64,000 nt of DNA from the NCBI RefSeq assembly GCF_053078305.1, contig NZ_CP166879.1; one strand, 5' to 3'. Shown here in pieces: positions 1,280 through 58,703 of the stretch. The notes below the pieces were generated by a model. It was not told the DNA's origin. It worked only from the letters and a program-made list of their open reading frames with translations, and did no database searches. The translations under genes were made by a program, and so were the position numbers. Each line of letters opens with the position of its first letter. Position 1 is the stretch's first letter.

Positions 1280-1294
1280 TCTGATAAACCTGAC

Positions 1295-1822
1295 TTATCT
1301 CTCCGGCACATCCACAGCAAGCGGGTGCTGCACACGCCACTGGCGCGCCTCTTCACGACTGACCTGTGCACCCCGGAAATTCATCACCCGTAACCCGGTC
1401 TGCTGCCCACGGTGGTACAGCGAACGCCAGCACAGACGGGGAAAAATATCCTGCCGGACAAGACGACTCATATCCGGAGTGTGTCCAAAAGGGGCAACCC
1501 AGTCACAGACCCACATCCGGTCGCCGCTGTTCCAGTCCGACTGAGGCATGAGAATTGCCGGCTGCGTAAGATAACGCGCCTCTGCCTCCGGGCTGAGCCA
1601 GGCCTGGCTCATGAAGAAAACCGGTCGCCCCTGCTCTGTTGCCACCACATACTGTCGGTGCTTAATCACCGGCAGCAGCAGGTCCGGCAGGGTATGCAGT
1701 GGCGCATCACGATGCAGGGGGGAGTGCATCCACAACCAGACGGCCGCCCCCAGGACTTCCGCCTCATTGACCGGCTCACCGGAATACAGGGGACTCAGAA
1801 CGTCATATTTCCCGTTACGCAT
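1295..1822 (-). CDS. cdiC: HlyC-family toxin-activating lysine acyltransferase (CdiC-like)
   Basis: 175 aa ORF between cdiB and cdiA; WLWMHSPLHRD and SGDRMWVCDWVAPFGH resemble HlyC/CyaC acyltransferases as I recall them. Confidence 0.7.
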   Translation of the reverse strand: MRNGKYDVLSPLYSGEPVNEAEVLGAAVWLWMHSPLHRDAPLHTLPDLLLPVIKHRQYVVATEQGRPVFFMSQAWLSPEAEARYLTQPAILMPQSDWNSGDRMWVCDWVAPFGHTPDMSRLVRQDIFPRLCWRSLYHRGQQTGLRVMNFRGAQVSREEARQWRVQHPLAVDVPER

Positions 1823-1831
1823 GAAACTTTC

Positions 1832-3571: not shown

Positions 3572-3732
3572 ACGAAAAACCTTTTATTCATGCCATACCA
3601 ACAATCACCAGCCTCCTGACGATACCTCCCACCATGTTTTGCAGTGGTACGCTACCGCCCTTCCGGTATTTACCCACACCAACCGGTACCAGAATGCTGA
3701 GTAACAAATCCGTTCAGAATTGACTTAATTTT

Positions 3733-3808
3733 GATCATTATAGAATAATGATCTGAGCGACAGCAATATGACAGATTTATCGATCGATATAACACAAATG
3801 AACAGATC
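3733..3808. promoter_or_regulatory. Candidate regulatory region upstream of cdiB with four GATC sites and two palindromes
   Basis: GATC at 3733, 3750, 3782, 3805; perfect 9-3-9 palindrome gatcattat-aga-ataatgatc at 3733..3753; palindrome tatcgatcgata at 3778..3789; direct repeat atatcgcaaaa at 3822 and 3838. Confidence 0.3.
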
Positions 3809-4159
3809 TTTATTCTGCCGAATATCGCAAAAACAGCATATCGCAAAACTTATAACCATAATTAATGGAAAAGTGCAGAAAATTATTCCACTGAATGCTT
3901 TTAATACAGTTGGTTAGCTAAAAAAATATCATTTTTTGATTTCAGTCATTGAAAATTGCAATGCGTGACGATTCAACAGCATTTAAGTGAGTTTCAGGAT
4001 ATGGGAAGGACATGAAAGGAGGAGCGTAATAAAACACACAGGAAGAAGGGGAAAATGTTTCGTAAAAACAGAAAATTAACAGCGCACATCAGGAAACTCA
4101 GTCTCCTGATTCAGTGCTACCACATGAAAATTTAGTTAACTGTTACCGTACTAAAATTT

Positions 4160-4351
4160 ATGTCAGAAGATGTTCCATTACCGAAAGTCAATCAGCGATA
4201 CAAAGACGATCATGGTGCGCTTGTCACCGTGACCAGTGTTGAGGAAACCCGGGTGGTGTTTATGCGGGAGGGCTATCCGCATCCCTGCATGCGACCGATG
4301 TACAACTTTCTGGGAAAATTCAAACCCGAAGCTCGGGAAGAAACAGAATAA
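4160..4351 (+). CDS. Small hypothetical protein (63 aa)
   Basis: ORF only; no family recognised. Confidence 0.3.
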   Translation: MSEDVPLPKVNQRYKDDHGALVTVTSVEETRVVFMREGYPHPCMRPMYNFLGKFKPEAREETE

Positions 4352-4403
4352 AACGAAATCCCTGCCGGCAATCACACTGCCTGATGGCAGCATAATCCAC
4401 TTA

Positions 4404-4712
4404 TTAATTCTCATCCCCGGAGACAAGCCCGGAAAACCACTCCGGGTGTTCACTGTATGCCGTGTTCAGCGCATCCCAGGAAACGTTTATATAAAAGCTG
4501 TCCTGCAATTTCCGGGTAACCACCTCTGCCAGGCGGTTCCGGTTATCCACCAGTCCAGCATAACCTATCTCTGCCAGCCACTCATTCAGTTCATGTTCCA
4601 GAGACAGATTGACAATATCGTAATCGGACCTTGCCATTCCCGTTTCCTTAGCACATGTTTTCAGGCACGGGGATAAAGTATAAAGAATGTCGTACTGCTG
4701 CTGCCAGAGCAA
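4404..4712 (-). CDS. Hypothetical protein (102 aa), possibly the 3' part of a frameshifted gene
   Basis: ORF immediately downstream of 4733..5392 in another frame. Confidence 0.3.
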   Translation of the reverse strand: MLWQQQYDILYTLSPCLKTCAKETGMARSDYDIVNLSLEHELNEWLAEIGYAGLVDNRNRLAEVVTRKLQDSFYINVSWDALNTAYSEHPEWFSGLVSGDEN

Positions 4713-4732
4713 TATTCCCCCTGATGGTTGTA

Positions 4733-5392
4733 TCAGAGATGGTATGCCGGTACTTTGCGGGTTGTTCCTGTCAGGTTATCGTGCACCTCCACGGTCGTGG
4801 TCACCACCGGCATTCCGGCCTTTCTCAGCCTCAGAACATCAGCCGCAATACGCTGACTGCCAAACCAGAACAGGCCGTCCAGTGCAGTCACCAGTAAACC
4901 CGCCTCCAGTGCATACTTCAGCCGTTCACGGGGCGCTTTCACTTCCCGGGCAACCTGCTGATATGGCAATGATGTGTTTTCATTCCCAACCACGCGACGA
5001 ATACGGTGAGACAGATGATACCGGAATGTATCCGGCACACCAGAAAGGCTGGCCTTCAGGCTGTACACGCAGCCAAACCGTTTATCGTTAAACACCACAT
5101 TTTTCTGACTGATGTCCCATTCTTCACGCAGCGCGGCAATCAGTTGTGGTGTCCGGGTAAGCAACAAGCGAAAAGGCAGTTCAAAACTGGTGACGTAATC
5201 CACATTCAGCAGTGCAATACGCAGCCGTTCTTCTGGCCCGGCCTCTGTCTGCCGGCACTCCTCCAGAACATCCTGCCACTGCTGGCGAAGACAGGGCGAT
5301 TCGTTCCGTTCTGTAAAACAGTATTTATCCGCCAGATAGTCAATTCGTGTATGCATACTGAAGAGTATTCCGTATAAAGATTCAGCTGGCAA
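4733..5392 (-). CDS. Hypothetical protein (219 aa), possibly the 5' part of a frameshifted gene
   Basis: ORF in the minus-strand gene block; the next ORF starts 21 nt downstream in a different frame. Confidence 0.4.
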   Translation of the reverse strand: MPAESLYGILFSMHTRIDYLADKYCFTERNESPCLRQQWQDVLEECRQTEAGPEERLRIALLNVDYVTSFELPFRLLLTRTPQLIAALREEWDISQKNVVFNDKRFGCVYSLKASLSGVPDTFRYHLSHRIRRVVGNENTSLPYQQVAREVKAPRERLKYALEAGLLVTALDGLFWFGSQRIAADVLRLRKAGMPVVTTTVEVHDNLTGTTRKVPAYHL

Positions 5393-5444
5393 AACTTTAT
5401 CAGTCTGTAAAAACTAACGGAAGAGTCGATATTTCTCCCGTCCA

Positions 5445-5942
5445 TCACCGGATGATTGTTGCAATACCCCGTGGCATCAGAGACTGAACAGCCGTTTTTA
5501 ACGCAACGTATTGCTCTGATGTATCAGGCCGGACAACCCGAAAACACCTTTCCACCCGGCATTGTCCGCCAGCGCTTATCACCGGCCAGGTCTGTTGCAG
5601 TAAATCCGCCACTTGCGAACATGCTTCATCAACTGTAACACTGGCCCGCGGATGGCAAACACTCGTCTGGCTGAGCAGTAACAGGCAGCGTATTGTTGCT
5701 CCTCCATGTTGTTCCCGCAACCAGCGTAATACCACCGGCGATGATGGGCTGGCAGTGTGATTACGCACAGTAATAAGTTCATAAAAGGAAGTACAGAATG
5801 TCTGAATCTGTTGACCACAGACGCCTTCTGTCGAATGAAGTGTGAAGTGGATTGCCAGCAGATGTGGCCTGTGATCCACCGCCTGCTGCACAAAACGCCG
5901 GATTTCCCCCGGCTCTGAAAGTAAGGCTTCGGTTATTTGCAC
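5445..5942 (-). CDS. Hypothetical protein (165 aa)
   Basis: ORF only; may be a separate gene or a C-terminal remnant of the upstream Gp2-like gene. Confidence 0.35.
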   Translation of the reverse strand: MQITEALLSEPGEIRRFVQQAVDHRPHLLAIHFTLHSTEGVCGQQIQTFCTSFYELITVRNHTASPSSPVVLRWLREQHGGATIRCLLLLSQTSVCHPRASVTVDEACSQVADLLQQTWPVISAGGQCRVERCFRVVRPDTSEQYVALKTAVQSLMPRGIATIIR

Positions 5943-6291
5943 TATTTTATCTCTGTTGAATTTGGTTAAGTCGGTGCAGACTCATCAACACAAGTACGGT
6001 TCGATGCAAACAGCTGTGACTGGCAATATGAAAGGAATGATGAATCAGTCAGGATGACAAAGTGCCGTCTGACCGGAGGGGACACAGGAAGATTCACGGA
6101 GGGACCAGCACTAGGGAACAGCGCCACATCCCGGGTGGTACTGCTTTGATGCGCCCGGTGACACAAAGCCCGGATTGTTCCAGACATCCTGAATCAAACG
6201 CCCCAGATCAGGGGCGTCGAAATATGCCTCTCTGGCCATTATATTCCGGCGTACAGGTAGCAGGTCAGAAGTGACAATGCGTCACCTAACG

Positions 6292-6858
6292 TTAAAAGTC
6301 ACTACACCCAAGATGACGTTCAACAGCACCATGCGATTCAATGTAAGCCCGGGCTGTCTGTTCCAGTACACCAGGCTCAGCGTTGTATGTGTTAGCTGCA
6401 TCAAATACCAACGACAACACTTCAGGATACACAACCAGATGTGTAATGGAGTTATCTTCACTCAATACTTTTCCCCACGCCTGCTCAATCAGATTTCTTA
6501 GAACCACCACCTCACGACTCTTACACCAGACATCGTTATTAAGTAGCAGCACCATAAGATAAGGAGTGGTATCGTTAGCCACAGCTTCCCTACTCCAGAG
6601 ATAATATAAAGGGGTGGGCTCAACAGATTTATCTTTACGTCTCTTGCACTGCAAATATTCAGAAATGAGTCTATGCAGTTCACCAGTAAAATCAGCCATC
6701 AGAGAGGGAATGGCCTTATTAATACCCTGCCCTGGTATTAATTTAAATTGTAATAATTTAATTTCAGGATGTGTAGCTGCAGCCCGATACAGAGTTGCAA
6801 GGACACACTTTTGCCAGAGGGCGTTACAGGAAAGCTTAACATTTGATTCTGTATACAT
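6292..6858 (-). CDS. YagK/YfjJ-family (inovirus Gp2-like, DUF3296) protein
   Basis: 188 aa; segments HPEIKLLQFKLIPG, LYYLWSREAV and YLMVLLLNNDVW resemble my recollection of E. coli YfjJ/YagK. Shorter than typical (about 280 aa), so possibly truncated. Confidence 0.5.
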   Translation of the reverse strand: MYTESNVKLSCNALWQKCVLATLYRAAATHPEIKLLQFKLIPGQGINKAIPSLMADFTGELHRLISEYLQCKRRKDKSVEPTPLYYLWSREAVANDTTPYLMVLLLNNDVWCKSREVVVLRNLIEQAWGKVLSEDNSITHLVVYPEVLSLVFDAANTYNAEPGVLEQTARAYIESHGAVERHLGCSDF

Positions 6859-7329
6859 AATAAATCACCTTACAGTTACAACAGGTCAAAAACCGCTGTA
6901 GCCAGAGTTACGCTGGCCTGATGCTTTAGTGTCGAGCTTCGTCAGATAATCCAGACGTGCCAATAAGCGCTGATACTGCTCAGGGAAATCAGGAGCATTA
7001 ATATCCTGGATGTCACGTCCATTAGCAGGGAAATGAACAATGCAGCCCCCTGGATTAACTATGCAGAAATCATCCTGAGGCACTGATAAATACGGAGAGG
7101 ACTCTCGCGTATGGTTGATTGACACCACAGTGCGAATTCGGCGAATGCGAGATCACGGTACGATTCCGCACCACACTACCAATCAATACCCCGGGTTTTA
7201 TTCAGGTAAGCAGGACTGCGGATATCCGGTGTCGCGCCTTTGTGTCACGAACGGGGTGGGTGCGAAACACCAGATAAAATACAGGTTGGCAATACCTCTG
7301 AACGCCCTGAGCAGGTCGGGCATTTCGGA

Positions 7330-7755
7330 TTAAGTACTCGCACCTCCGCAGTCCTCAAACAAGTCTGGCTGGTAGCTGTAAACAGACTTCGTACATACCG
7401 CTCTGCAATAAATCCCCGTACCACAGGCCTCACAGAACTTCTTCCCATGAAAAAACTGCTCACACATCACACAATGCCACTCCAGCACGACCGGTAATGG
7501 CGATAAAAACATCGCCATATCCTCAATGTAAGGGTGGGACTTCTCCGGATTCAGCACCACACAGTCCGCCTTCTGTTGCTCACTCAGGGCATGTAAATCA
7601 TGCTCAAACCACGCCCCCTGAGCATCTGTCTGCAGAATCAACCGGCCATGGCAGGAAAGGCAGAAACACTGCCGGATATTTCTGCTGAGCGCAGAGTCGG
7701 CACTGATAATGTGCTCACCCGGCGTGATCCCCAGCCCCGTTTTTATACCGTTCAT
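7330..7755 (-). CDS. Zinc-ribbon protein, paralog B (141 aa)
   Basis: Cys clusters CFCLSCHG and WHCVMCEQ...CEACGTG, plus WFEH and LPVV motifs shared with the upstream paralog; start overlaps the upstream stop by 4 nt (ATGA). Confidence 0.55.
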   Translation of the reverse strand: MNGIKTGLGITPGEHIISADSALSRNIRQCFCLSCHGRLILQTDAQGAWFEHDLHALSEQQKADCVVLNPEKSHPYIEDMAMFLSPLPVVLEWHCVMCEQFFHGKKFCEACGTGIYCRAVCTKSVYSYQPDLFEDCGGAST

Positions 7756-8135
7756 TCTGCTCCCCCCTCCTCACTGAAGCGCCCGGTCTGGCAGTGTGTG
7801 CAGTACTGCTCCCCATAATAATCGTGGTGACATTGCCTGCAGTGCCAGCTGGCTTTACGTACTACGGGTAAGGCATCCGGGACGAATTGCTGCAGACGTT
7901 TAATCAACCGTATTTCTCTGCGTTCCGGCCTGACATAAGGGCACTCATGACCGTGCTCCGTCAGCCCTTCGTCAGCGTGTTCAAACCAGGGCCGTTCAGT
8001 GTCGTATTGCGGGTGGTATCTGAGTGCACTGCCGCAAAGGTGGCAGGTGTAGCTATCGTAAGGTGCAGTCTGTGCGGTACGGGCACCGGTCAGACGTCCG
8101 TTGCCATCAAGTGCGAGAAAAGATTTTGCGTACAT
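7752..8135 (-). CDS. Zinc-ribbon protein, paralog A (127 aa)
   Basis: Cys clusters CHLCGS and WHCRQCHH...CTHCQTG with WFEH motif; GAGGAA ribosome-binding site upstream of ATG at 8135. Confidence 0.55.
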   Translation of the reverse strand: MYAKSFLALDGNGRLTGARTAQTAPYDSYTCHLCGSALRYHPQYDTERPWFEHADEGLTEHGHECPYVRPERREIRLIKRLQQFVPDALPVVRKASWHCRQCHHDYYGEQYCTHCQTGRFSEEGGAE

Positions 8136-8507
8136 AGTATATGTTCCTCAGCCGCCAGACGACACGCAGGCAACAGCCGTCCCGGTACGGGCAGCGTGGT
8201 CAGGGTGTGAATGGCGGTTCAGTTAAAATCTGGACTGGAGTTTGGGTAAAGCAGGCTGGTTGCTGTTACAGCACTGTGGTTGTCACACAATGGCCCACTG
8301 ACGTAAAAAACAGTCAGTAAGCAGAGATGGAGATTGGGGGATGTGCTGTATCGGTTGCCGGAAGGAATGGTAAAGAATGTGTCATGGTTAAATCTCCGTA
8401 TGGTTCATACGGAATGGCCACGCCGTAAAAAATGCGCAGAGCCGCTGAAGTGGCCGCCGGAACCGACAGCAAAGATTAGCGCCAGCCCGTACTTGTCGTT
8501 CAGGGGC

Positions 8508-9107
8508 TTACACCAGAGCACATATCCCCGGCAGGGGGCTGTCCAGTCGTGGTCGACCACGGTTACTTTTTTCAGGAAGCCCGCTGCATTTCAGGATGAT
8601 GCCACATTCTTTCTGTTCCCGTTTGGCCAGGTAGCTGATGGCATAGCGTAAATCATTCACCGCTTTGTGATCTGAATAGTGAATGACGTGGTTAATGTTT
8701 ACCGGATAATTTTTATTAAACCGGCACCAGTGGTAGTAACCATTACCATCGGTAACCCGCCTCCAGATATCTCCCATCAATCTGGATACCAGATACGAAC
8801 TCCTGTGGATCTGACCGTTCAGATAGCCCACAAAATGAATGTGAAGCCCTTTACGTTCTGTATATTCCATCACCCAGGCATACCCGACCAGTTTCTCTCC
8901 CACCTCGTTAATCAGTTGCAGCATCTCCGCGCACATGGCGTACCTGCAGGCGCATCCGTAGCTGAATGTGTTTTTTCGGTAAGCAAAATCCATTCTGAAC
9001 GGTAACAGCTTCGAATAGACCCCGAATAATGAATCCAGATGCTGGTTAAAGTGTGTCAGGAGCTGGGGAGCCATTTCGTAAGCGGGATTGGTGTTATAAG
9101 TTTGCAT
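8508..9107 (-). CDS. YagK/YfjJ-family (inovirus Gp2-like) protein, second paralog
   Basis: 199 aa; motifs YAWVMEYTERKGLHIHFVGYLNG resemble the conserved core of the YfjJ/YagK family; GAGGAA ribosome-binding site before ATG at 9107. Confidence 0.5.
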   Translation of the reverse strand: MQTYNTNPAYEMAPQLLTHFNQHLDSLFGVYSKLLPFRMDFAYRKNTFSYGCACRYAMCAEMLQLINEVGEKLVGYAWVMEYTERKGLHIHFVGYLNGQIHRSSYLVSRLMGDIWRRVTDGNGYYHWCRFNKNYPVNINHVIHYSDHKAVNDLRYAISYLAKREQKECGIILKCSGLPEKSNRGRPRLDSPLPGICALV

Positions 9108-9338
9108 GTTTCTTCCTCGTGTTCTGTAACACAGGAAGAAGCGCTGGCGTAATTTTTGAAGAAAACGTTATCACACGAAGACGTGCAAGTTCACAACTCC
9201 CCGGGCGCCACAGAGAAAGTGGGAGCACACCCGGGTATCAGAACCATACAGAGAACGGCATACGTGACTGTCAATCACAGCGCAGATAATATCTGATATG
9301 ATGTCATTGTGACGACTGTACTTCATCAGAAACATTTA

Positions 9339-9551
9339 TCAGGTAACATATTTCCAGACTGAAGCGGGAACACGATCGTAAAGTTTGTTCATGGTCAGTT
9401 CTGCCAGCCGGTGATCGACCGCAGAGTTGAAGGCTTCCATCTCCGCTGGAGTAAGCTTATAACGCGTGTGGGAAATCACTTTTTCCAGTGTCTCCCGGGA
9501 TGAACAACGACGGAACTGATACAGCCAGTCTTCTTTGGTCTTAACTTCCAT
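9339..9551 (-). CDS. Hha/YmoA-family modulator paralog (70 aa)
   Basis: C-terminal [22 protein letters not shown] is near-identical to the Hha signature as I recall it; start ATG at 9551 chosen inside the longer 117 aa ORF. Confidence 0.75.
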   Translation of the reverse strand: [70 protein letters not shown]

Positions 9552-9699
9552 TATCCTCTCGTTATTTTGTGCTGTGATTAACGTTAACATAATACCGTCA
9601 GAATAACGTATTCTGACGTCATCCCGGAAGTCTTTCCACTTTCCTGTCTCTCCGGTAATAAAACATTTTAAATGCTGAAGGCATAACGCCATAACCAGA

Positions 9700-10190
9700 T
9701 ATTACAAGTAACGTGGCGTTACACGTGTTAATGCATTACAGAAGTAACAGAGACAATCAGATAGTAAACAACACTCCGGAAGACTGTTTAATGGCATAGG
9801 TATACTTTTTACGATCACAATATTATATCACTACCAAAATTCATCAGGTGAACTGCAAAAGCAAAACATTAACAGTTCTCCCTCAACCACCGTTATCCAC
9901 ACTATTGACACTGACGATTCATACTCTTATTTAGCCAGAATAGCCTCCACACAACAGGCATTACTTAACAAAGTACATTACAGTCAGTGTGTGTACATGA
10001 CAGATTTATATTCAGGTGTTACGAGATTACATTACAGCAGAGAGAGTTAAGGACAGAGTTACAAGTACTACTACAGAGAATATCTCTGTACAGATACTTC
10101 TATGAGCATATCTTTATGAGAGATCCGTCTACAGGATTGGGTTACAAGGTGGAATTACAGAATTACAGGGTTCATTTACATAACCATACT
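9700..10190. repeat. AT-rich divergent intergenic region with about ten degenerate TTACA(G/A) repeats
   Basis: ATTACAG at about 9734, 9975, 10028, 10153, 10161; GTTACAAG at 10057 and 10141; related copies at 9710 and 9719; lies between the minus-strand block ending at hha and the plus-strand block starting at 10503. Confidence 0.6.
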
Positions 10191-10502
10191 TCTATAAATA
10201 ATACTAATTAACCTTAATTATTTTTTAATAGTACATGAACTGCCTGTAGCTGTAACGACAAATCACCCAAAATGAAAAATACTGGTTATCACGGTTCAGA
10301 GAACTCGTATAAGTACCTCCCCCCTGAGCAATGCTTCATTTTCTGTGGTTCTATGTGATAGAGTTATGCTGAGTACAGTGGCAGTAACCCTGCTTTCCAC
10401 CACTCAATGACAAAACACACAAAAAATTAATTATATGAATTAACAGTGTTTTTTATGGAATGTTATGCATATCAACCAATATGATTAACAGAAAACTTCA
10501 TC

Positions 10503-11294
10503 ATGACAACACGTATAACTTTCAATATGACCAGTGATGAGACGCTGCGAATTGTGGATGAGTACTGTCATACCCACAAACTTTCGCGCTCTAAGGTAAT
10601 CGACGCATTACTCAGCGCCACAGCACCTGTCCTTAACGATATTAACTGTTATTATCAACTTGCAGGCAAACTGCAGTCACGCTTATTAAATGGAGTGTAT
10701 CAACGGGATCTTCCTCACAAACGCAATGTCGTCAGTGCAGAGAAGTATTGTCTGGAAATCTGGGAAAACAAACTTTTCACCAAAAGAATCCTGGAGTTTG
10801 ACAGTTCAAATGGTGTTCTATACGCGCTGAAACATAAAAGACACTATCGCCGGGATAAGATGATTGGACGGGTTGAAAGCCGGCGTATCAAAGACATTTG
10901 CGAATACCAGATGCAACTGTCCGGGGAGAAGGCAAAATATGCCTGTTTTATTTATATTGAAAGAACAATATACAATCACGATAATCCATCCGGTGAAACA
11001 CCTGTAAAAGCGGCTGTTGGTAATGCAGTCATCCTGCTGGCAAAAGACGTGATATATGACGAGTACTTTTTTGATCTGCGGCAGTCATTTTTCGTGAGCG
11101 TTAAAGATTTGATGGCCTCTGGCGCAAAAGGTATTCCGGAGACACAGAAATATCCGGACGTTTATTGCTGGATCCCGCTTTTCTCCATAAATTCCGGCGT
11201 GGTCATTACCCCGGTCTATAAAATTGATCCCCGGAAACCCGTAACGGTAAAAAAACCGGATCAGATCACTGTTGTTTGTAATTACAGAGAATAA
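10503..11294 (+). CDS. Hypothetical protein with N-terminal ribbon-helix-helix-like domain (263 aa)
   Basis: N-terminus TRITFNMTSDETLRIVDEYCHTHKLSRSKVIDALL has a beta-strand plus two-helix RHH pattern; the remaining 220 aa is unrecognised. Confidence 0.5.
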   Translation: MTTRITFNMTSDETLRIVDEYCHTHKLSRSKVIDALLSATAPVLNDINCYYQLAGKLQSRLLNGVYQRDLPHKRNVVSAEKYCLEIWENKLFTKRILEFDSSNGVLYALKHKRHYRRDKMIGRVESRRIKDICEYQMQLSGEKAKYACFIYIERTIYNHDNPSGETPVKAAVGNAVILLAKDVIYDEYFFDLRQSFFVSVKDLMASGAKGIPETQKYPDVYCWIPLFSINSGVVITPVYKIDPRKPVTVKKPDQITVVCNYRE

Positions 11295-11676
11295 TTTCAG
11301 TCTTCTCCGTTCACCGCAACAGTGTTTACCTCTGCTTTATCTTCCTTTCAGTAAATACAAACCACAGCTCTGGCAGGTACAGGGCGTGGTTTATCTCCGA
11401 TACTCCCCTGCGCAGTAATAATCATCACTGAAAATACTGATTCCGTCACGGCAAAACGCCATCCCATATTCCGGCAACACAAAATCATCTTCCGTTTATA
11501 CCGGCTTCACTGACAAAACAGACAACCTGTATTGCCTGTACACAACAGTTTCTCTCCTGGCAGGAATATTCCTCAACTTTTTTACGTTTCTCCCCGGTTG
11601 TTATGCCGGTGAAGGTGGTGCGTCGTTTTCATCACCAACGCCGGTTGAGATTAACAACATCCGGAGGAACATTTTC

Positions 11677-11883
11677 ATGAAGACCCCAGTTTCGCTGATG
11701 GATGACCAGATGGTCGACATGGCGTTTATCACTCAACTGACCGGCTTAACCGATAAGTGGTTTTATAAGCTCATCAAAGATGGTGCCTTTCCGGCCCCCA
11801 TCAAACTCGGCCGCAGCTCCCGATGGCTGAAAAGTGAAGTGGAAGCCTGGTTGCAGGCGCGTATTGCACAATCCCGTCCGTAA
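11677..11883 (+). CDS. alpA: AlpA-family prophage transcriptional regulator
   Basis: 68 aa; helix-turn-helix segment FITQLTGLTDKWFYKLIKDGAFPAPIKLGRSSRWLKSEVEAWL typical of AlpA; GGAGG ribosome-binding site at 11664. Confidence 0.8.
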   Translation: MKTPVSLMDDQMVDMAFITQLTGLTDKWFYKLIKDGAFPAPIKLGRSSRWLKSEVEAWLQARIAQSRP

Positions 11884-11968
11884 TTACTGACCGTTATCCG
11901 TTCAACCGCAGCGAATACACTATCCGGCCTCCGGAGGCATTCTGCTGCGTGCTAAAGGAGAGAATATT

Positions 11969-12541
11969 ATGCAAAAACTTGAAAACCGGTGTGATCTGCT
12001 GCTAATTCAGCATCAGAAATGGATGGCAAGTGTAACCCGGTTTATTGTCGCTCATGGAATGGGCTCTCCGCATCTTCATGGTTATCACCGCCTGACCCTG
12101 GCTCACTTTTTTCTACCGGAAAAAGGCACCATCATCTCAGTGGCACCACAGGGACTCTATCAGGTCGTCAACCCGGGAACGCCACCGTTCATTCCTGCCA
12201 TTCAGGAAGGGTTAATGACCAGCATTCAGACCCATGAAATCATGCTGCTTACGCATTTTAATCTGGGCGGCGTTTTACTCAGTGAGCTACATCGTCTGGG
12301 CGAAAGCCGGCTGGCAAACAGGCTGAACAGTCTGCTCCGGCGTTTCGAAGATCGCGATCTCTACCACACGCTGATATGGCTGTGCTGGTATGATCTGATG
12401 TGTGCCCACTCCATGCAGCCCTGGACTGAAGAGTTAAAGCATAAATCACACACAGAGCTTGAAAGCTGGGCTGTGGCGCGCAAACGGGAAAAGCGCGAGC
12501 TTGAACTGATGATTGACGAGTATCTGTTATACGCCTGTTGA
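11969..12541 (+). CDS. Hypothetical protein (190 aa)
   Basis: ORF with AAAGGAG ribosome-binding site immediately downstream of alpA; no family recognised. Confidence 0.45.
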   Translation: MQKLENRCDLLLIQHQKWMASVTRFIVAHGMGSPHLHGYHRLTLAHFFLPEKGTIISVAPQGLYQVVNPGTPPFIPAIQEGLMTSIQTHEIMLLTHFNLGGVLLSELHRLGESRLANRLNSLLRRFEDRDLYHTLIWLCWYDLMCAHSMQPWTEELKHKSHTELESWAVARKREKRELELMIDEYLLYAC

Positions 12542-14121
12542 TTCATAACGCTCCCGGGATTCCTTCCTCATCGTTGCACACAACCGGACGGCTATCTGTG
12601 GCAGTCCGCCAAATGACCCTCGCCGCATTTCGTTCTGCTGAAAACGGTACGTAGCCAGTGATACCGGAATTTCCGGAGAGGGTCGCAGGTATATTGCTTC
12701 TGTGCAATTGATGCTTATTTACATTGGATGTGGTTATTTCTGCATCCAATGCTATCGGAAAGAGATCAACCAGCAAATGGTTCCTCAAATCGTATTGATA
12801 TTTACCCGGTGCATTGAGCACCTCCATCTGACACTCCGTTCCCGCATCAAACGGCTGAACCGGAAAACGATTTGCTTTTCACGCTCCGTGGAAATTCACG
12901 AAAAAGTTATTGGGTCATTCATCGAAAAACACATGTTCTGCTGACTGGAGCCATCACCCGGAAATATACGTCAACTGAACAATAACGATTTTTTCTTTAT
13001 GGGATCCCATACACTTTCCCATACCCCTCTGAAAATCAGTCATCAACTCACCAACACATCTTCTGAAATCTGTATTAAACTTATTGCTTAAATAGATGAT
13101 ATAACACATCTTCCATTGCACGGAATCAGCGAAAACTGTCATTCTGGCAATCTTAACAAGATCATTTATCGGTTAATTTTATCAGTAAACAATGGAATAT
13201 CACACTGATAAAATGAACATTCAGGGTAAGATGATAAAATTCACATAAAAAATGCTGAAGATTATTTATTTCATGCAGATAAACGATAAAATACAAGAGA
13301 GTATATTTTTCAGTGTAAGAGTCAATCGTTCATCTCCACTGACGATCACGGTCAGCACATAAACAAAGTGAGTCCTCCTGCTTAGTCATTGCGTATCAGA
13401 AACTAAAAAACAAAAGATTCTGTAAACAACGTGACATTTTTTATGACATTTCCCGAATACAGATATATCAACAAACAGTAGTCAGCGTTGAATTAATAAG
13501 TTTTACAGGGCTATACGTATCTTATAAAACCACTCAACGACCATCATCACCTGACTATTTAGCGGGAGTATCATCTGTATAAATCCCTAAATAATAACAC
13601 CTGTTATTAAAATAAGAATGCTGTCAGCAGTAAATTATTAACATAACACCTGTCCACTCTATCTGTTCTTCTAACTCAACCGGCATCGAAAATATTGCCT
13701 GATTAGTGCATCATAGCCTTCTTTTTTCTTTCCCGACCATCAAAACAAATACAACATTTACAACCACACAATAAAACAAAACTAAAACATAAGATTAACA
13801 ACACCAATCAACAGGAAAACACTGAATATTGAGGTGCCCTGTAACCTGGAGAGCGCATACGGCGCATGTGATCAACACAGCCCATTCTTTTCTGTCATCC
13901 CCCAAATGCAGAACAAACAAGCATAACCTAATGAATATAAAATAAAATATTATTTTTCACCATCATAAAAACATCAATGTATCTTTATATAAAAACACTG
14001 ACAACATGACATAAACATTTAAAAACATAAACAAATCACAACAAAAACATTTGATAATCACTTAGTGACAAAATAAAATTGAGACGATTTTGTTATAAGA
14101 GAGGCGCCATGGAGTGAGATA

Positions 14122-15141
14122 ATGAATAACGAACAGATGCTTATCAAATGCAAAGATCCCCGTAAATGTCGGTTTTATGCTGAATATCTGAATCACAAAT
14201 ACCCCAATGAATTCCCTCAGTTTGCGCCTGACAACCCACAAAACTGTATCAGAAATGTTAATGCGTTTTTAAAAGAAAAGTATTGTAATACTTCAAACAA
14301 TTCTTTTGGTGTTTTTGGTTCGACTGCAGAAGAAGCTCTCAGCAAAGAAATTAATGAACTTGAAATTATTGCAGGGCAGGCAATACTGCCTGAAGAGAGT
14401 TTTCTCTGGTTGAAAACTGACGAACTTGCGACTTTCTTTACCTGGACTACTATTTATCTGTCGAAGGAAGACCATACAAATTTCCCGGAAATAAACCATA
14501 ATTCATCAGGGATAAAAAACGGAATTGAAGTCAGAAAAAGACGAACAGTTACCGATGAAACGTTAAATACTTACAAAAAAAGTAACCTTCCGGATAATCC
14601 ATCATCCCATAACGAACGAATAAAAGTAATCATTTTATATTTTGATTCCTGTCATTCTTTAATTAATAAAAATGCAAAAAGCATATACCTCGAGGAACTC
14701 AGGCAGACGTGGCTTAAAAATAAAAGCGCTTGTCAAAAGTTTAAGTGGCTCCTTCCTGACGATGATGAAATGTGTCAGTGGTTCTGGACAAGACTGAAAC
14801 AAAAACAGGATGAAACACATCCGGTACATAACCCGGTGACCCGGTGGTTCATACCATCTTCAACGAAAGAATATTATCTTGCCTCTCTCGTCGCCTTTGC
14901 TTTATGGAAAGAGGCACCTGATACCATTGAACTGTTCAGAACACGCATAAATCATGCCTGGCATCAAAAAAAACAAAAAGACAAATATCGGAATGATGGT
15001 AAAAAGGCTATTAATATACATATAAGAAGCAATGCGAAAGAAATGCTTGATGAACTCAGAACTGTTTACGGTCTGAGAACAGGAGAGTTTTTTGAAATGC
15101 TGATTACAGAAAAATATCTTGAACACAAGCGAAGGAAGTAA
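14122..15141 (+). CDS. Hypothetical low-GC, Lys-rich protein (339 aa) with C-terminal RHH-like segment
   Basis: ORF with GGAGTGAG ribosome-binding site, preceded by about 1.1 kb of ORF-free AT-rich DNA; C-terminus INIHIRSNAKEMLDELRTVYGLRTGEFFEML looks ribbon-helix-helix-like. Confidence 0.5.
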   Translation: MNNEQMLIKCKDPRKCRFYAEYLNHKYPNEFPQFAPDNPQNCIRNVNAFLKEKYCNTSNNSFGVFGSTAEEALSKEINELEIIAGQAILPEESFLWLKTDELATFFTWTTIYLSKEDHTNFPEINHNSSGIKNGIEVRKRRTVTDETLNTYKKSNLPDNPSSHNERIKVIILYFDSCHSLINKNAKSIYLEELRQTWLKNKSACQKFKWLLPDDDEMCQWFWTRLKQKQDETHPVHNPVTRWFIPSSTKEYYLASLVAFALWKEAPDTIELFRTRINHAWHQKKQKDKYRNDGKKAINIHIRSNAKEMLDELRTVYGLRTGEFFEMLITEKYLEHKRRK

Positions 15142-15211: not shown

Positions 15212-16123
15212 GTGCGCGGGGTTTTGTCTTTTTTCACCGGGAATACATGTATGAATCCGTCTGATGCCATTGAGGCAATTGAAAAACCGCTCTCCTCCCT
15301 GCCTTACTCACTTTCCCGTCACATCCTGGAACATCTGCGCAAACTCACCAGCCACGAACCCGTGATTGGCATTATGGGGAAAAGCGGGGCCGGTAAATCC
15401 TCACTCTGTAATGCACTGTTTCAGGGGGAGGTCACCCCGGTCAGTGATGTTCACGCCGGCACCCGGGAAGTGCGGCGCTTCCGTCTGAGTGGCCATGGTC
15501 ACAACATGGTTATCACTGACCTGCCCGGGGTGGGTGAGAGCCGGGACAGGGATGCAGAGTATGAAGCCCTGTACCGTGACATTCTGCCTGAACTTGACCT
15601 GGTGCTGTGGCTGATTAAAGCCGATGACCGTGCCATGTCTGTGGATGAGTATTTCTGGCGACACATCCTGCACCAGGGACATCAGCAGGTGCTGTTTGTG
15701 GTGACACAGGCCGACAAAACGGAGCCCTGCCATGAATGGGATATGGCCGGTATTCAGCCTTCTCCCGCACAGGCACAGAATATTCGCGAAAAAACGGAGG
15801 CGGTATTCCGTCTGTTCCGGCCCGTACATCCGGTTGTGGCCGTATCGGCCCGCACCGGCTGGGAACTGGATACGCTGGTCAGTGCGCTCATGACAGCGCT
15901 TCCCGACCATGCCGCCAGTCCCCTGATGACCCGCCTGCAGGACGAGCTGCGCACGGAATCTGTCCGCTCTCAGGCCCGTGAACAGTTTACCGGTGCGGTG
16001 GACCGGATATTTGACACGGCGGAGAGCGTCTGTGTTGCCTCTGTTGCCCGTACGGTTCTGCGTGCCGTCCGTGACACGGTGGTCTCTGTTGCCCGCGCTG
16101 TATGGAACTGGATTTTCTTCTGA
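15212..16123 (+). CDS. YeeP/YkfA/YfjP-family GTPase
   Basis: P-loop GIMGKSGAGKSS and G-domain motifs; conserved position upstream of flu. The track ORF starts at GTG 15212; the first ATG is at 15251. Confidence 0.8.
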   Translation: MRGVLSFFTGNTCMNPSDAIEAIEKPLSSLPYSLSRHILEHLRKLTSHEPVIGIMGKSGAGKSSLCNALFQGEVTPVSDVHAGTREVRRFRLSGHGHNMVITDLPGVGESRDRDAEYEALYRDILPELDLVLWLIKADDRAMSVDEYFWRHILHQGHQQVLFVVTQADKTEPCHEWDMAGIQPSPAQAQNIREKTEAVFRLFRPVHPVVAVSARTGWELDTLVSALMTALPDHAASPLMTRLQDELRTESVRSQAREQFTGAVDRIFDTAESVCVASVARTVLRAVRDTVVSVARAVWNWIFF

Positions 16124-16239
16124 ACACTCTGCCAGGAAAATGCCTGATTACATTGCGTTAACCAACTGAAAACATGACACAAACACCTCATGCTCCTCCT
16201 GTTTCTCTTGCGTGACCGCCTTGCAATCAATAGAATAAA

Positions 16240-16280
16240 ACGATCGATAAAACAGATATCGATCGTTACTATCGATCGTT
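16240..16280 (+). promoter_or_regulatory. agn43 (flu) regulatory region with three GATC sites (OxyR / Dam phase-variation switch)
   Basis: GATC at 16242, 16261 and 16274 within cgatcgataaaacagatatcgatcgttactatcgatcg, about 220 bp upstream of the flu start; matches the known agn43 switch architecture. Confidence 0.75.
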
Positions 16281-16494
16281 TATAGTGGTTAATGGTCTGC
16301 GAAAAGGCAGTTGAATCTCTTCATCATGCAGAACGGAATTGCACAAAACGGACTGATACTTCTCTGGCGGATGAGAGAGGGGAAGCATTTATGTCCGGGA
16401 AAAACCACTGTATCTGACCATGCTGTTTTGTACCTGCCGGTATCCACATTTGTGGGTACCGGCTTTTTTATTCACCCTCTGTAAGGAAAAGCTG

Positions 16495-19400
16495 ATGAAA
16501 CGACATCTGAACACCAGCTACAGGCTGGTATGGAATCACATTACGGGCACCCTGGTGGTGGCCTCCGAACTGGCCCGCTCACGGGGAAAACGCGCCGGTG
16601 TGGCGGTTGCTCTGTCTCTTGCTACTGTCACGTCAGTCCCGGCACTGGCTGCTGACACGGTTGTTCAGGCAGGAGAAACCGTGAATGGCGGAACACTGGT
16701 AAACCATGACAACCAGTTTGTATCCGGAACAGCTGATGGCGTGACTGTCAGTACCGGGCTTGAGCTGGGGCCGGACAGTGACGAAAACACCGGCGGGCAA
16801 TGGATAAAAGCGGGTGGCACAGGCAGAAACACCACTGTCACCGCAAATGGTCGTCAGATTGTGCAGGCAGGAGGAACTGCCAGTGATACGGTTATTCGTG
16901 ACGGCGGGGGACAGAGCCTGAACGGGCTGGCGGTGAACACCACGCTGAATAACAGAGGCGAGCAGTGGGTTCATGAGGGCGGGGTTGCCACCGGTACAAT
17001 TATCAACCGCGACGGTTACCAGAGCGTTAAAAGTGGCGGGCTGGCAACAGGAACCATCATCAACACCGGCGCAGAAGGCGGCCCGGATTCTGACAACTCG
17101 TACACGGGTCAGAAGGTCCAGGGAACAGCAGAATCCACCACCATCAACAAAAATGGACGGCAGATTATCTTATTTTCCGGGATAGCCCGTGACACTCTCA
17201 TTTACGCAGGTGGTGACCAGTCGGTACACGGAAGGGCCCTGAATACCACACTGAATGGCGGTTACCAGTATGTGCACAAGGACGGACTTGCGCTGAACAC
17301 GGTAATTAACGAGGGGGGCTGGCAGGTTGTTAAGGCAGGTGGTGCTGTCGGTAACACCACCATAAATCAGAACGGTGAACTGAGAGTACATGCCGGCGGG
17401 GAAGCAACTGCAGTCACCCAGAACACGGGCGGTGCACTGGTTACCAGTACGGCTGCAACCGTTACCGGCATAAACCGCCTGGGAGCATTCTCCGTTGTGG
17501 CGGGTAAGGCTGATAATGTCGTACTGGAAAATGGCGGACGTCTGGATGTGCTGAGCGGACACACAGCCACTAATACCCGTGTGGATGATGGCGGAACGCT
17601 GGATGTCCGCAACGGTGGTGCCGCCACCACCGTATCCATGGGGAATGGCGGTGTACTGCTGGCCGATTCCGGGGCCGCTGTCAGTGGTACCCGGAGCGAC
17701 GGAAAGGCATTCAGTATCGGAGGCGGTCAGGCGGATGCCCTGATGCTGGAAAAAGGCAGTTCCTTCACACTGAACGCCGGTGATACGGCCACGGATACCA
17801 CGGTAAATGGCGGACTGTTCACCGCCAGAGGGGGCTCGCTGGCGGGCACCACCACGCTGAATAACGGTGCCACGCTTACCCTTTCCGGGAAAACGGTGAA
17901 TAACGATACCCTGACCATCCATGAAGGTGATGCACTCCTGCAGGGAGGCGCTCTTACCGGTAACGGCAGGGTGGAAAAATCAGGAAGTGGCACACTCACT
18001 GTCAGCAACACCACACTCATCCAGAAAACCGTCAACCTGAATGAAGGCACGCTGACGCTGAACGACAGTACCGTCACCACGGATGTCATCGCTCAGCGCG
18101 GCACGGCCCTGAAGCTGACCGGCAGCACAGTGCTGAACGGTGCCATTGACCCCACGAATGTCACCCTGACATCCGGTGCCACCTGGAATATCCCCGATAA
18201 CGCCACGGTGCAGTCGGTGGTGGATGACCTCAGCCATGCCGGACAGATTCATTTCACCTCCACCCGCACAGGGAAGTTCGTACCGGCAACCCTGAAAGTG
18301 AAAAACCTGAACGGGCAGAATGGCACCATCAGCCTGCGTGTACGCCCGGATATGGCACAGAACAATGCTGACAGACTGGTCATTGACGGCGGCAGGGCAA
18401 CCGGAAAAACCATCCTGAACATGGTGAACGCCGGCAACAGTGCGTCGGGGCTGGCGACCAGCGGTAAGGGTATTCAGGTGGTGGAAGCCATTAACGGTGC
18501 CACCACGGAGGAAGGGGCCTTTGTCCAGGGGAACAGGCTGCAGGCCGGGGCCTTTAACTACTCCCTCAACCGGGACAGTGATGAGAGCTGGTATCTGCGC
18601 AGTGAAAATGCTTATCGTGCAGAAGTCCCCCTGTATGCCTCCATGCTGACACAGGCAATGGACTATGACCGGATTCTGGCAGGCTCCCGCAGCCATCAGA
18701 CCGGTGTAAACGGTGAAAATAACAGCGTCCGTCTCAGCATTCAGGGCGGCCATCTCGGTCACGATAACAACGGCGGTATTGTCCGTGGGGCCACGCCGGA
18801 AAGCAGCGGCAGCTATGGCTTCGTCCGCCTGGAGGGTGACCTGCTGAGAACAGAGGTTGCCGGTATGTCTCTGACGACAGGGGTGTATGGTGCTGCAGGC
18901 CATTCTTCCGTTGATGTTAAGAATGATGACGGCTCCCGTGCCGGCACGGTCCGGGATGATGCCGGCAGTCTGGGCGGATACCTGAATCTGGTACACAACG
19001 CCTCCGGCCTGTGGGCTGACATTGTGGCCCAGGGAACCCGCCACAGCATGAAAGCGTCATCGGACAATAACGACTTCCGCGCCCGGGGCTGGGGCTGGCT
19101 GGGCTCACTGGAAACCGGTCTGCCCTTCAGTATCACTGACAATCTGATGCTGGAGCCGCAACTGCAGTACACCTGGCAGGGACTCTCCCTGGATGACGGC
19201 CAGGATAACGCCGGTTATGTGAAGTTCGGGCATGGCAGTGCACAACATGTGCGTGCCGGTTTCCGTCTGGGCAGCCACAACGATATGACCTTTGGTGAAG
19301 GCACCTCATCCCGTGACACCCTGCGCGGCAGTGCCAAACACAGTGTGCGTGAACTGCCGGTGAACTGGTGGGTACAGCCTTCTGTTATCCGCACCTTCAG

Positions 19401-19617
19401 CTCCCGGGGGGACATGAGCATGGGTACAGCCGCAGCCGGCAGTAACATGACGTTCTCACCGTCACAGAATGGTACGTCACTGGACCTGCAGGCCGGACTG
19501 GAAGCCCGTGTCCGGGAAAATATCACCCTGGGCGTTCAGGCTGGTTATGTCCACAGCGTCAGCGGCAGCAGCGCTGAAGGCTATAACGGTCAGGCCACGC
19601 TGAATGTGACCTTCTGA
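16495..19617 (+). CDS. flu: Antigen 43 self-associating autotransporter
   Basis: N-terminus MKRHLNTSYRLVWNHITGTLVVASELARSRGKRAGVAVALSLA is the Ag43 signal peptide; repetitive alpha domain and C-terminal beta-barrel ending NVTF. Start set at ATG 16495 rather than the track start 16420. Confidence 0.95.
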   Translation: MKRHLNTSYRLVWNHITGTLVVASELARSRGKRAGVAVALSLATVTSVPALAADTVVQAGETVNGGTLVNHDNQFVSGTADGVTVSTGLELGPDSDENTGGQWIKAGGTGRNTTVTANGRQIVQAGGTASDTVIRDGGGQSLNGLAVNTTLNNRGEQWVHEGGVATGTIINRDGYQSVKSGGLATGTIINTGAEGGPDSDNSYTGQKVQGTAESTTINKNGRQIILFSGIARDTLIYAGGDQSVHGRALNTTLNGGYQYVHKDGLALNTVINEGGWQVVKAGGAVGNTTINQNGELRVHAGGEATAVTQNTGGALVTSTAATVTGINRLGAFSVVAGKADNVVLENGGRLDVLSGHTATNTRVDDGGTLDVRNGGAATTVSMGNGGVLLADSGAAVSGTRSDGKAFSIGGGQADALMLEKGSSFTLNAGDTATDTTVNGGLFTARGGSLAGTTTLNNGATLTLSGKTVNNDTLTIHEGDALLQGGALTGNGRVEKSGSGTLTVSNTTLIQKTVNLNEGTLTLNDSTVTTDVIAQRGTALKLTGSTVLNGAIDPTNVTLTSGATWNIPDNATVQSVVDDLSHAGQIHFTSTRTGKFVPATLKVKNLNGQNGTISLRVRPDMAQNNADRLVIDGGRATGKTILNMVNAGNSASGLATSGKGIQVVEAINGATTEEGAFVQGNRLQAGAFNYSLNRDSDESWYLRSENAYRAEVPLYASMLTQAMDYDRILAGSRSHQTGVNGENNSVRLSIQGGHLGHDNNGGIVRGATPESSGSYGFVRLEGDLLRTEVAGMSLTTGVYGAAGHSSVDVKNDDGSRAGTVRDDAGSLGGYLNLVHNASGLWADIVAQGTRHSMKASSDNNDFRARGWGWLGSLETGLPFSITDNLMLEPQLQYTWQGLSLDDGQDNAGYVKFGHGSAQHVRAGFRLGSHNDMTFGEGTSSRDTLRGSAKHSVRELPVNWWVQPSVIRTFSSRGDMSMGTAAAGSNMTFSPSQNGTSLDLQAGLEARVRENITLGVQAGYVHSVSGSSAEGYNGQATLNVTF

Positions 19618-58404: not shown

Positions 58405-58480
<76 letters not shown>

Positions 58481-58515
58481 TTGGGTGGTCTGTGCCTTAC
58501 AGCACTTTCAAATTT

Positions 58516-58591
<76 letters not shown>

Positions 58592-58627
58592 TTGGGTGGT
58601 CTGTGCTTTGCAGCACTTTTCAAATTT

Positions 58628-58703
<76 letters not shown>

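Follow-up and report, generated by a model that had tools for sequence, protein, structure and literature searches.

Three described proteins frame the Antigen 43 (Ag43) allele analyzed here: Ag43a of UPEC CFT073 (c3655, PDB 4KH3), the structurally defined prototype of class C3; Cah/Ag43 of EHEC EDL933 (z1211, PDB 7KOH), of class C2; and Flu of E. coli K-12 (b2000, in the cryptic prophage CP4-44), of class C1. Self-association involves a head-to-tail double interface in which N-terminal rungs (mature residues 29 to 115) are paired with lower rungs (162 to 256), and mutation of T199 and T256 abolishes aggregation by EDL933 Cah. Because Ag43a and Ag43b both belong to class C3 but aggregate differently, aggregation strength is not readable from class. 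On the LAA island (Montero 2017, Sci Rep 7:7011), a tpsA-(cdiC)-tpsB array is followed by an agn43 module, the two being the adjacent modules III and IV, and the prototype island is inserted at the tRNA gene pheV. Contact-dependent inhibition (CDI) loci of class IV carry cdiC between cdiB and cdiA as their hallmark, a gene order also found in cdiBCAI-STEC4 of E. coli STEC_O31 (Halvorsen et al. 2021, mBio 12:e02530-21), where CdiC belongs to the HlyC family and cdiB is TTG initiated.

We analyzed a stretch of 64,000 nucleotides, hereafter the window, from contig NZ_CP166879.1 (RefSeq assembly GCF_053078305.1). The best explanation of its contents, which we consider as a whole to be likely, is that it carries an intact and functional-looking agn43 gene encoding a class C3 Ag43 of SL2-EJ1-BL1-AC1E architecture, that this allele is the product of recombination inside the stem, and that agn43 and the cdi locus on the same island are not one regulatory or functional unit. 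The two loci would stand together because the island family was assembled from co-travelling modules, those of LAA III and IV. The layout is already published, as LAA modules III and IV (Montero 2017) and as class IV cdiBCAI (Halvorsen 2021).

An uninterrupted open reading frame for a 1,040-aa product on the plus strand, with an ATG at 16495 and a stop codon ending at 19617, was identified as agn43 (flu). Membership in the Ag43/Cah family (type Va) was judged by four modules, namely, an ESPR, AIDA-type beta-helix repeats, a type 1 autochaperone, and a 12-strand beta-barrel translocator, and all four are present in this one polypeptide (Pfam ESPR, 9.4e-13; AIDA, 3.5e-55 over five stretches; AC_1, 1.2e-18; Autotransporter, 7.8e-19). 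The product scores 1871.2 bits against the NCBIfam equivalog NF033177, "Ag43/Cah family autotransporter adhesin" (cut-off, 1200), and its best match among solved structures is Ag43a (4KH3; 882 bits over aa 52 to 552). The signal peptide with the ESPR (aa 1 to 52; 16651 being the first nucleotide after it) occupies 16495 to 16650 (+), with borders set according to Table S1 of Ageorges et al. 2023. It is followed by the stem (SL) subdomain, which bears the self-association surface (aa 53 to 324; 16651 to 17466, +), by EJ1 (aa 325 to 409) and BL1 (aa 410 to 552) at 17467 to 18150 (+), and by the autochaperone (AC1), the beta-barrel translocator, and the stop codon at 18151 to 19617 (+). BL1 ends at the alpha/beta processing site, NGAID/PTNVTL, which is the same as in K-12 by sequence comparison. 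By homology, export of the protein would follow the type Va pathway, with cleavage at D552/P553. Its beta-helix would form an L on the cell surface and bind head to tail to the same protein on neighbouring cells, which may lead to cell clumping and promote biofilm.

The sequence-only reading had described the product as close to, though not identical with, K-12 Ag43, and this part of the description stands, 909/1,040 positions (87%) being identical to K-12 Flu. The 131 differences are not scattered through the passenger, as that reading had it, but clustered by domain (chi-square, P = 7e-35). The proportion of differing positions is 33.5% in SL and 17% in the signal peptide, as against 3.5% in EJ, 4.9% in BL, 1.4% in AC, and 5.6% in the beta domain. 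Residues 52 to 153 are 92 to 98% identical to Ag43a and residues 154 to 325 are 96 to 100% identical to EDL933 Cah, while residues 326 to 552 are 94 to 98% identical to both Ag43a and K-12, and the autochaperone and beta-barrel are 94 to 99% identical to K-12 (94% for the beta domain alone). Ag43a shares the SL2-EJ1-BL1 architecture and length of the window allele, as well as 88% identity over the alpha domain, but falls to merely 58 to 79% over aa 154 to 300; EDL933 Cah, in contrast, has a short EJ2-BL2-AC module and is 51 to 69% identical past aa 325. At the 94 sites that differ between Ag43a and EDL933 Cah, the window allele keeps to one of the two over long stretches and changes sides just five times. 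The informative sites of SL are Ag43a-like from aa 65 and Cah-like from aa 152 up to the SL/EJ border. Such long runs form a recombination-block pattern rather than one of point divergence. The N-terminal third of the stem resembles Ag43a of CFT073, whereas the rest, with most of the interface residues, is like Cah of EDL933; in its elbow and base, the allele is of the K-12/Ag43a type.

Typing of the allele, as the sequence-only reading had proposed, showed that the passenger is not novel. Its SL (272 aa), EJ (85 aa), and BL (143 aa) are 100% identical to those of VAEP_159.2, the published "class C3, cluster 2" representative (Ageorges et al. 2023, Int J Mol Sci 24:5500, Table S1), an entry of that supplement which was located by a junction peptide and which also totals 1,040 aa. 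The exact 1,040-aa protein of the window is on record at NCBI as WP_044187788.1, so that the allele is already known. It combines the SL2-type stem with the long EJ1-BL1 module, in a 500-aa passenger, that together define class C3, yet about two-thirds of its stem is nearer to Cah, the C2 prototype. A seventh, undescribed class combination (a stem 92% Cah-like joined to EJ1-BL1) was considered and ruled out, the identical passenger being already catalogued as C3. The allele of strain GPEC1176 is likewise 100% identical to that of the window over the alpha domain, with 12 differences in the flanking parts: its signal peptide has substitutions at aa 4, 24, and 33, which VAEP_159.2 shares and the window does not, and nine further differences lie in the AC/beta part.

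The region upstream of the gene resembles that of K-12. A putative control region, the Dam/OxyR phase-variation switch, extends over 16208 to 16277 (+), with a putative −35 element (TTGCGT, at 16208), a −10 element (TAGAAT, at 16231), and GATC sites at 16242, 16261, and 16274. The spacing of the GATC sites (19 and 13 nt) and their offset from TAGAAT are the same as in K-12. We take this to be the agn43 promoter, on the basis of the K-12 alignment and the literature; the putative −35 is weak (3/6 matches), and the promoter was not called by a consensus scan. The best matches to a generic OxyR consensus have 7/20 mismatches in the window versus 6/20 in K-12. A MAFFT alignment suggested a variant switch, with a 13-nt insertion and loss of the third GATC relative to K-12, which was ruled out by direct coordinates, these giving the same GATC geometry. 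The leader, an IsrC-type RNA, spans 16240 to 16476 (+) (Rfam RF00124, IS102 RNA; 74.7 bits; gathering score, 46). Its conserved terminator-like hairpin occupies 16436 to 16463 (12 pairs, followed by a T run), and isrC is annotated at the corresponding place in K-12. Dam methylation and OxyR binding would compete at these three GATC sites, which closely follow the promoter, and would thereby switch the gene ON and OFF.

At the left edge of the window lies the locus that the sequence-only reading had called CDI-like, and its presence on the same island was confirmed (2 to 3571, −; ShlB with POTRA, HlyC, and TPS by Pfam). Reading from its 5′ end, it comprises cdiB (1832 to 3571, −), which has a TTG start and encodes a two-partner-secretion outer-membrane transporter of 579 aa (ShlB, 1.8e-109; POTRA_2; POTRA_3); cdiC (1295 to 1822, −), which encodes a lysine acyltransferase of the HlyC family (6.2e-32) and lies between cdiB and cdiA; and the 5′ part of cdiA (2 to 1279, −; ATG at 1279), of which the first 426 codons precede the window edge. 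This portion of CdiA contains the ESPR signal (6e-11), the TPS secretion domain (1.1e-57), and the first haemagglutinin repeats. The exact CdiC protein is very common, occurring in 13,717 blocks of the indexed collection. RefSeq splits cdiB and cdiA in relatives, and a pseudogene reading was ruled out, since the translated frames are open and the split is an annotation artefact. A draft contig of the source strain, 100% identical to positions 1 to 13484 of the window, carries the full CdiA (2,981 aa), in which VENN stands at 2760 and the class IV motif, RIRKKGK, at 1463 to 1469 (K1466-K1467-G-K1469). The C-terminal toxin after VENN is glycine rich and had no match in Pfam, and a downstream open reading frame for an 82-aa hydrophobic protein is a candidate immunity gene. 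As judged by domains and gene order, the locus is a genuine class IV cdiB-cdiC-cdiA, complete according to the draft contig that is identical over 13,484 nt. It shares with cdiBCAI-STEC4 the gene order, the HlyC-family CdiC, the TTG-initiated cdiB, and the K1466-K1467-G-K1469 motif, and differs from it in the toxin after VENN, which is unrelated to Ntox25 (22% identity). This neighbour of agn43 would be a complete class IV cdiBCAI system, presumably active in CDI, with recognition of the LPS core and a CdiA acylated at Lys1467.

The island backbone between the two loci (3572 to 15141), described from the annotation of the 99.5%-identical GPEC1176 island and the called genes of the draft contig, encodes DUF4222, YagK/YfjJ, zinc-ribbon proteins, Hha, an AlpA-like HTH protein, and hypothetical proteins. 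Directly upstream of agn43 is a gene for a YeeP-like GTPase (15251 to 16123, +; Pfam MMR_HSR1, 6.2e-15; a GTPase family protein in relatives). Downstream is a conserved neighbour of agn43 encoding an 838-aa YeeR-like membrane protein (19738 to 22254, +), which is hypothetical in relatives and has a precomputed match to PF27347 (YeeR_C), our own Pfam scan assigning it no family. The right arm (22330 to 28159, +), again following the GPEC1176 annotation, runs from IrmA (Pfam, 2.1e-37) through DUF905, DUF932, an antirestriction protein, YeeS, YeeT, the YeeU/CbtA toxin-antitoxin pair, DUF5983, and DUF957 to DUF4942. The right junction falls within ulaE, at 28159/28160, K-12 homology resuming at 28160 (ulaE nt 56), and in the closest complete relative an integrase abuts ulaE. 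The K-12 flu neighbourhood is alike (yeeP-like GTPase, agn43, yeeR, yeeS, yeeT, and cbeA/cbtA), with the same GATC switch geometry and 94 to 99% identity in Flu from aa 326 on; in K-12, however, the stem is 33.5% divergent, yeeR is shorter, and no cdi locus is nearby. The order of the cdi genes and the agn43 module is that of LAA modules III and IV, but the LAA prototype sits at pheV and its agn43 stem is of another class. Within the window, no genes of LAA modules I and II (hes, lesP) were seen; they would lie outside its bounds. Since neither a tRNA-gene junction nor hes was seen, we describe the island as carrying LAA-like modules and do not file it as LAA.

The sequence-only reading had envisaged a composite island carrying a non-K-12 agn43 together with CDI, and both loci do occur together in no fewer than 68 further complete genomes. 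To be counted among these (≥68/5,426 complete E. coli genomes), a genome had to match a query whose two ends were both needed for 80% coverage, which replaced a 23.6-kb query that possibly admitted islands lacking cdi; because the count is uncorrected for shared ancestry, it cannot tell selected linkage apart from hitch-hiking. The agn43 copies of these cdi-linked islands have another stem than the window allele. The block is present at two chromosomal sites, beside yghD/gsp in 2014C-4135 and beside ula in FHI_NMBU_10, and the best-matching blocks are from O113:H21, O91:H21, O178:H19, and O22:H8 STEC.

Two other readings concern the adhesin itself. That agn43 is a silent or decaying passenger of the island, with no present function, we find hardly credible: the gene is often interrupted elsewhere (by a frameshift in 2014C-4135 and by an inserted IS3-family element in SI-NP020) and the island carries IS remnants, but the window copy is full length without a frameshift, its control region and leader are conserved, its beta domain is 94% identical to that of K-12, and its alpha domain is 100% conserved in GPEC1176 even though there are 12 differences in the parts that flank it. 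It is also unlikely that the hybrid stem has a new self-recognition specificity, such that its bearers would aggregate only with themselves as a group apart from Ag43a-type and Cah-type cells. The two halves of the interface do come mostly from different parental types, N29 of EDL933 Cah is replaced by D, and the window allele has T and N in place of R200 and E216 of Ag43a; moreover, heterotypic aggregation is rare even among classes with a common SL type, and C2 and C3 cells do not co-aggregate. By sequence comparison, however, 12 of the 13 double-interface residues of EDL933 are kept (N60, S78, D79, N96, T114, T133, S162, D181, T199, N216, T237, and T256), N29 being the sole change and T199 and T256 being among those unaltered, so that an interface of the Cah type is the simplest one to predict. 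At N60, S78, D79, and N96 of the N-terminal interface, moreover, the parental types do not differ from each other.

The remaining readings join the adhesin to its neighbour. Clumping by Ag43 might supply the tight contact needed by CdiA, the island thereby coupling aggregation to contact-dependent competition or to the policing of aggregate membership, which we regard as quite improbable. Class IV killing is approximately 20-fold in shaken broth versus up to 1e5-fold on agar (Halvorsen 2021), so that contact limits it, and aggregation by adhesins, Ag43 included, influences how contact-dependent attacks turn out (bioRxiv 10.64898/2026.03.26.714566); what is published for clumping by Ag43, however, is protection of the target, not more killing. 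Among the 189 complete genomes with the cdiBC-A′ segment, at least 68 have the linkage, which occurs at both chromosomal sites, but these make up only ∼3% of genomes with a near-full-length agn43 (68/2,365). In the window, the loci are ∼13 kb (12.9 kb) apart and divergently transcribed, with more than a dozen open reading frames between them, so that they share no operon. The same cdiBCAI locus also occurs in unrelated contexts, e.g., adjoining Zorya genes, and the stem beside cdi varies among islands, that of FHI_NMBU_10 being K-12-like and 68.5% identical to the window stem. Conversely, of the seven complete genomes with the window-type stem, three were checked and all three lack an adjoining cdi, with a T6SS remnant or IS66 in its place. 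Ag43 is, in addition, homotypic and so mainly gathers kin, which would carry cdiI. Beyond physical linkage, nothing found here supports a functional tie of aggregation to CDI, and several of these observations speak against tight coupling. That the island is a portable two-part unit of kin discrimination, in which a phase-variable, allele-specific adhesin is combined with the killing of cells without immunity and a stem swap retargets the cells drawn near, we consider highly unlikely.

The main value of the analysis is correct annotation, the finding being real but ordinary. The allele would be one more case of agn43 stems exchanged by recombination within a conserved island backbone. What LAA-type islands carry as "tpsAB" is a class IV CDI system, and an adhesin thus shares one mobile block with an interbacterial weapon. 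The stem swap would give a C3 scaffold the interface of the Cah type and, if the kin-discrimination reading were true, would change which cells enter killing range. If aggregation does modulate CDI, this would be relevant to the way in which clonal microcolonies are built and policed by pathogenic E. coli.

The gene at 16495-19617 of the window is agn43/flu, at exactly those coordinates. This identification, already proposed by the sequence-only reading, rests on a reading frame open throughout from an internal ATG at 16495 to the end of a 1,040-aa product at 19617, on a complete set of autotransporter modules in Pfam (ESPR, five AIDA stretches, a type 1 autochaperone, and the beta-barrel domain), and on a score of 1871 bits for the NCBIfam Ag43/Cah equivalog, whose cut-off is 1200. 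The NGAID|PTNV alpha/beta processing site is also found. The same reading had described the product as close to K-12 Ag43 with scattered substitutions; it is indeed near but not identical to K-12 Flu (87% identity, 909/1040 positions), but the substitutions are not scattered. The 272-aa SL stem (aa 53-324) holds 91 of the 131 differences and diverges by 33.5%, versus 1.4 to 5.6% in the EJ, BL, AC, and beta domains (chi-square p = 7e-35).

The protein was compared with the four reference alpha domains of solved structure, namely, Ag43a of uropathogenic strain CFT073 (4KH3), Cah of enterohemorrhagic strain EDL933 (7KOH), UTI89 (7KO9), and Ag43b (7KOB), with strain assignments taken from Vo et al. 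2022. By segment identities it is a block mosaic: aa 52-153 are 92 to 98% identical to Ag43a; aa 154-325 are 96 to 100% identical to EDL933 Cah and 58 to 88% to Ag43a; and aa 326-552 are 94 to 98% identical to Ag43a and K-12 and 51 to 69% to Cah. At the 94 sites that discriminate Ag43a from Cah, the allele stays with Ag43a or with Cah over long runs and changes between them just five times, the main changes being at aa 152 and at the SL/EJ border (aa 324). The mosaic corresponds to the SL2-EJ1-BL1-AC1E architecture, i.e., subfamily SF-I, class C3 (Ageorges et al. 2019, 2023), and the SL, EJ, and BL domains are 100% identical to those of VAEP_159.2, the C3 "cluster 2" representative (Table S1 of Ageorges 2023). 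The whole protein is present at NCBI (WP_044187788.1/KFD79114.1) on two contigs, and the closest whole-gene match is that of E. coli GPEC1176 (99.1%). The proposed typing against known variants returned an identical catalogued passenger, and not a common one: only 10 records among 5,426 complete E. coli genomes carry the stem DNA at ≥99% identity. The allele is therefore catalogued but rare. To our knowledge, C3 cluster 2 has no functionally characterized member.

Of the 13 residues in the EDL933 double interface, 12 are kept, including T199 and T256, positions at which mutation abolishes aggregation; the Ag43a interface residues R200 and E216 are substituted. The simplest prediction is Cah-like head-to-tail pairing. 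Upstream of the gene, a putative -10 box (TAGAAT, 16231) precedes three GATC sites (16242, 16261, and 16274). These sites keep the K-12 spacing, 19 and 13 nt, and the K-12 offset, so Dam/OxyR phase variation is expected. An altered GATC geometry, hinted at by a gapped alignment, was ruled out by the same spacing and offset. The leader, a match to Rfam IS102/IsrC, has at its end a 12-pair hairpin and, after it, a T-run (16436-16463); this upstream type is the common one, found at ≥80% coverage in 3,445 genomes.

The neighboring locus, previously called "CDI-like," encodes on the minus strand CdiB (1832-3571; ShlB and two POTRA domains), the HlyC-family acyltransferase CdiC (1295-1822), and the first 426 codons of the TPS-domain protein CdiA (from 1279 to the left window edge). 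The B-C-A order with an acyltransferase is the hallmark of class IV loci, in which CdiC lipidates a CdiA that binds the LPS core (Halvorsen 2021). The full locus was read from the draft contig of the source strain (GCA_000736735.1), which is 100% identical to window positions 1-13484. There, CdiA spans 2,981 aa, carries the RIRK-K1467-G-K motif of class IV, and has VENN at 2760 (L022, 12206-21650, left of the window). The locus can thus be called a genuine class IV CDI locus, with predicted activity. The 222-aa C-terminal toxin following VENN, glycine rich and partly hydrophobic, matched no Pfam family and could be an uncharacterized membrane-acting CDI toxin. A very hydrophobic 82-aa open reading frame after cdiA is likely the gene for a membrane immunity protein, and an orphan toxin N-terminal fragment lies downstream of it. 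RefSeq (PGAP) annotation splits cdiB into a POTRA pseudogene and a short ShlB coding sequence and cdiA into fragments (L002, 6095-9484; L004, 12166-23484). Disruption of these genes in relatives was nevertheless rejected because the frames are open (579 uninterrupted codons from a TTG start for cdiB; 3,037 for cdiA in strain FHI_NMBU_10); the splitting is a systematic annotation artifact.

The right end of the island lies inside ulaE at 28159/28160, with just the first 56 nt of the gene left beside ulaD. In GPEC1176, the remainder of ulaE lies ∼61 kb away and adjoins a tyrosine integrase (L017, 21844-24015). The island therefore integrates into a protein-coding ascorbate-operon gene rather than a tRNA gene. 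Full coverage of the ula-side junction region in FHI_NMBU_10, CP55_Sichuan, and TB06053 suggests the same junction there. Beside hha, GPEC1176 carries an IS2 copy that the window lacks (window 9310-9314 versus L001 13875-15207), and IS66-family elements replace everything left of window position 3439, cdi included; because of these two changes, the window may preserve an earlier, cdi-bearing state of the island. Downstream of agn43, 19738-22254 encodes an 838-aa membrane protein (K-12 YeeR has 510 aa) that matched nothing in Pfam-A scans, with only a precomputed YeeR_C record; its gene is kept beside agn43 in all islands examined. For the core genes right of the island (ula, aidB, rnr, purA, and hflKC; 25001-50000), no complete E. 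coli genome exceeds 98.2% identity, and most reach ∼97.3%. Complete genomes therefore represent the source lineage poorly; the closest is GPEC1176, a chicken isolate. Three tandem tRNA-Gly(GCC) genes (58405-58703, minus strand) form the ordinary glyVXY cluster.

Co-residence of cdi and agn43 extends to other genomes. At ≥80% coverage, 189/5,426 complete genomes have the cdiA'-cdiC-cdiB segment, and a 20.5-kb query that starts within cdiA and extends to the end of agn43, of which neither end alone attains 80% coverage, matched at ≥80% in 68; 59 of the 60 matches listed span it end to end, and the remaining one is 624 nt short. Many are LEE-negative STEC (O113:H21, O91:H21, O178:H19, and O22:H8), and modules III (tpsA/tpsB) and IV (agn43) of the LAA pathogenicity island match this layout. 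The block occupies at least two chromosomal sites, beside yghD/gsp and beside ula. The linkage is nonetheless loose: it occurs in only ∼3% (68/2,365) of the genomes that carry a near-full agn43; the same cdi locus is also found beside Zorya genes and elsewhere; in FHI_NMBU_10, the stem of the cdi-adjacent agn43 is K-12-like, with 90.5% identity to K-12 versus 68.5% to the window stem; and in 3/3 checked genomes with the window stem, IS66 or a type VI secretion system (T6SS) remnant takes the cdi position. In strains 2013C-3181 and SCU-171, the same agn43 module, its stem allele unchanged, borders on its DUF4222 side the T6SS genes tssB, tssC, tssK, and tssL instead of cdi (L018, 6734-8277; L019, 1-8276). 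Which contact-dependent weapon locus the left arm of the module adjoins thus varies from strain to strain.

That Ag43 aggregation is functionally coupled to CDI, with clumping aiding killing, appears quite improbable. Contact does limit class IV CDI, with ∼20-fold killing in broth versus 1e5-fold on agar (Halvorsen 2021), and physical linkage is the sole support in the present data. In the window, 12.9 kb with many open reading frames lies between the two loci, and their transcription is divergent. However, Ag43 binds like alleles and would therefore gather mostly kin, and in the one pertinent experimental study clumping was reported to shield targets both from CDI, via type 1 fimbriae, and from T6SS attack, via Ag43 or TibA (bioRxiv 10.64898/2026.03.26.714566).

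The window thus holds an agn43 allele that is real, intact, and correctly placed, and the composite island that it shares with a class IV CDI locus is likewise real. Allele, CDI class, and island layout have all been described already; this strain combines a C3 cluster 2 stem with class IV cdi and an island that ends within ulaE, a rare reshuffle of known parts.
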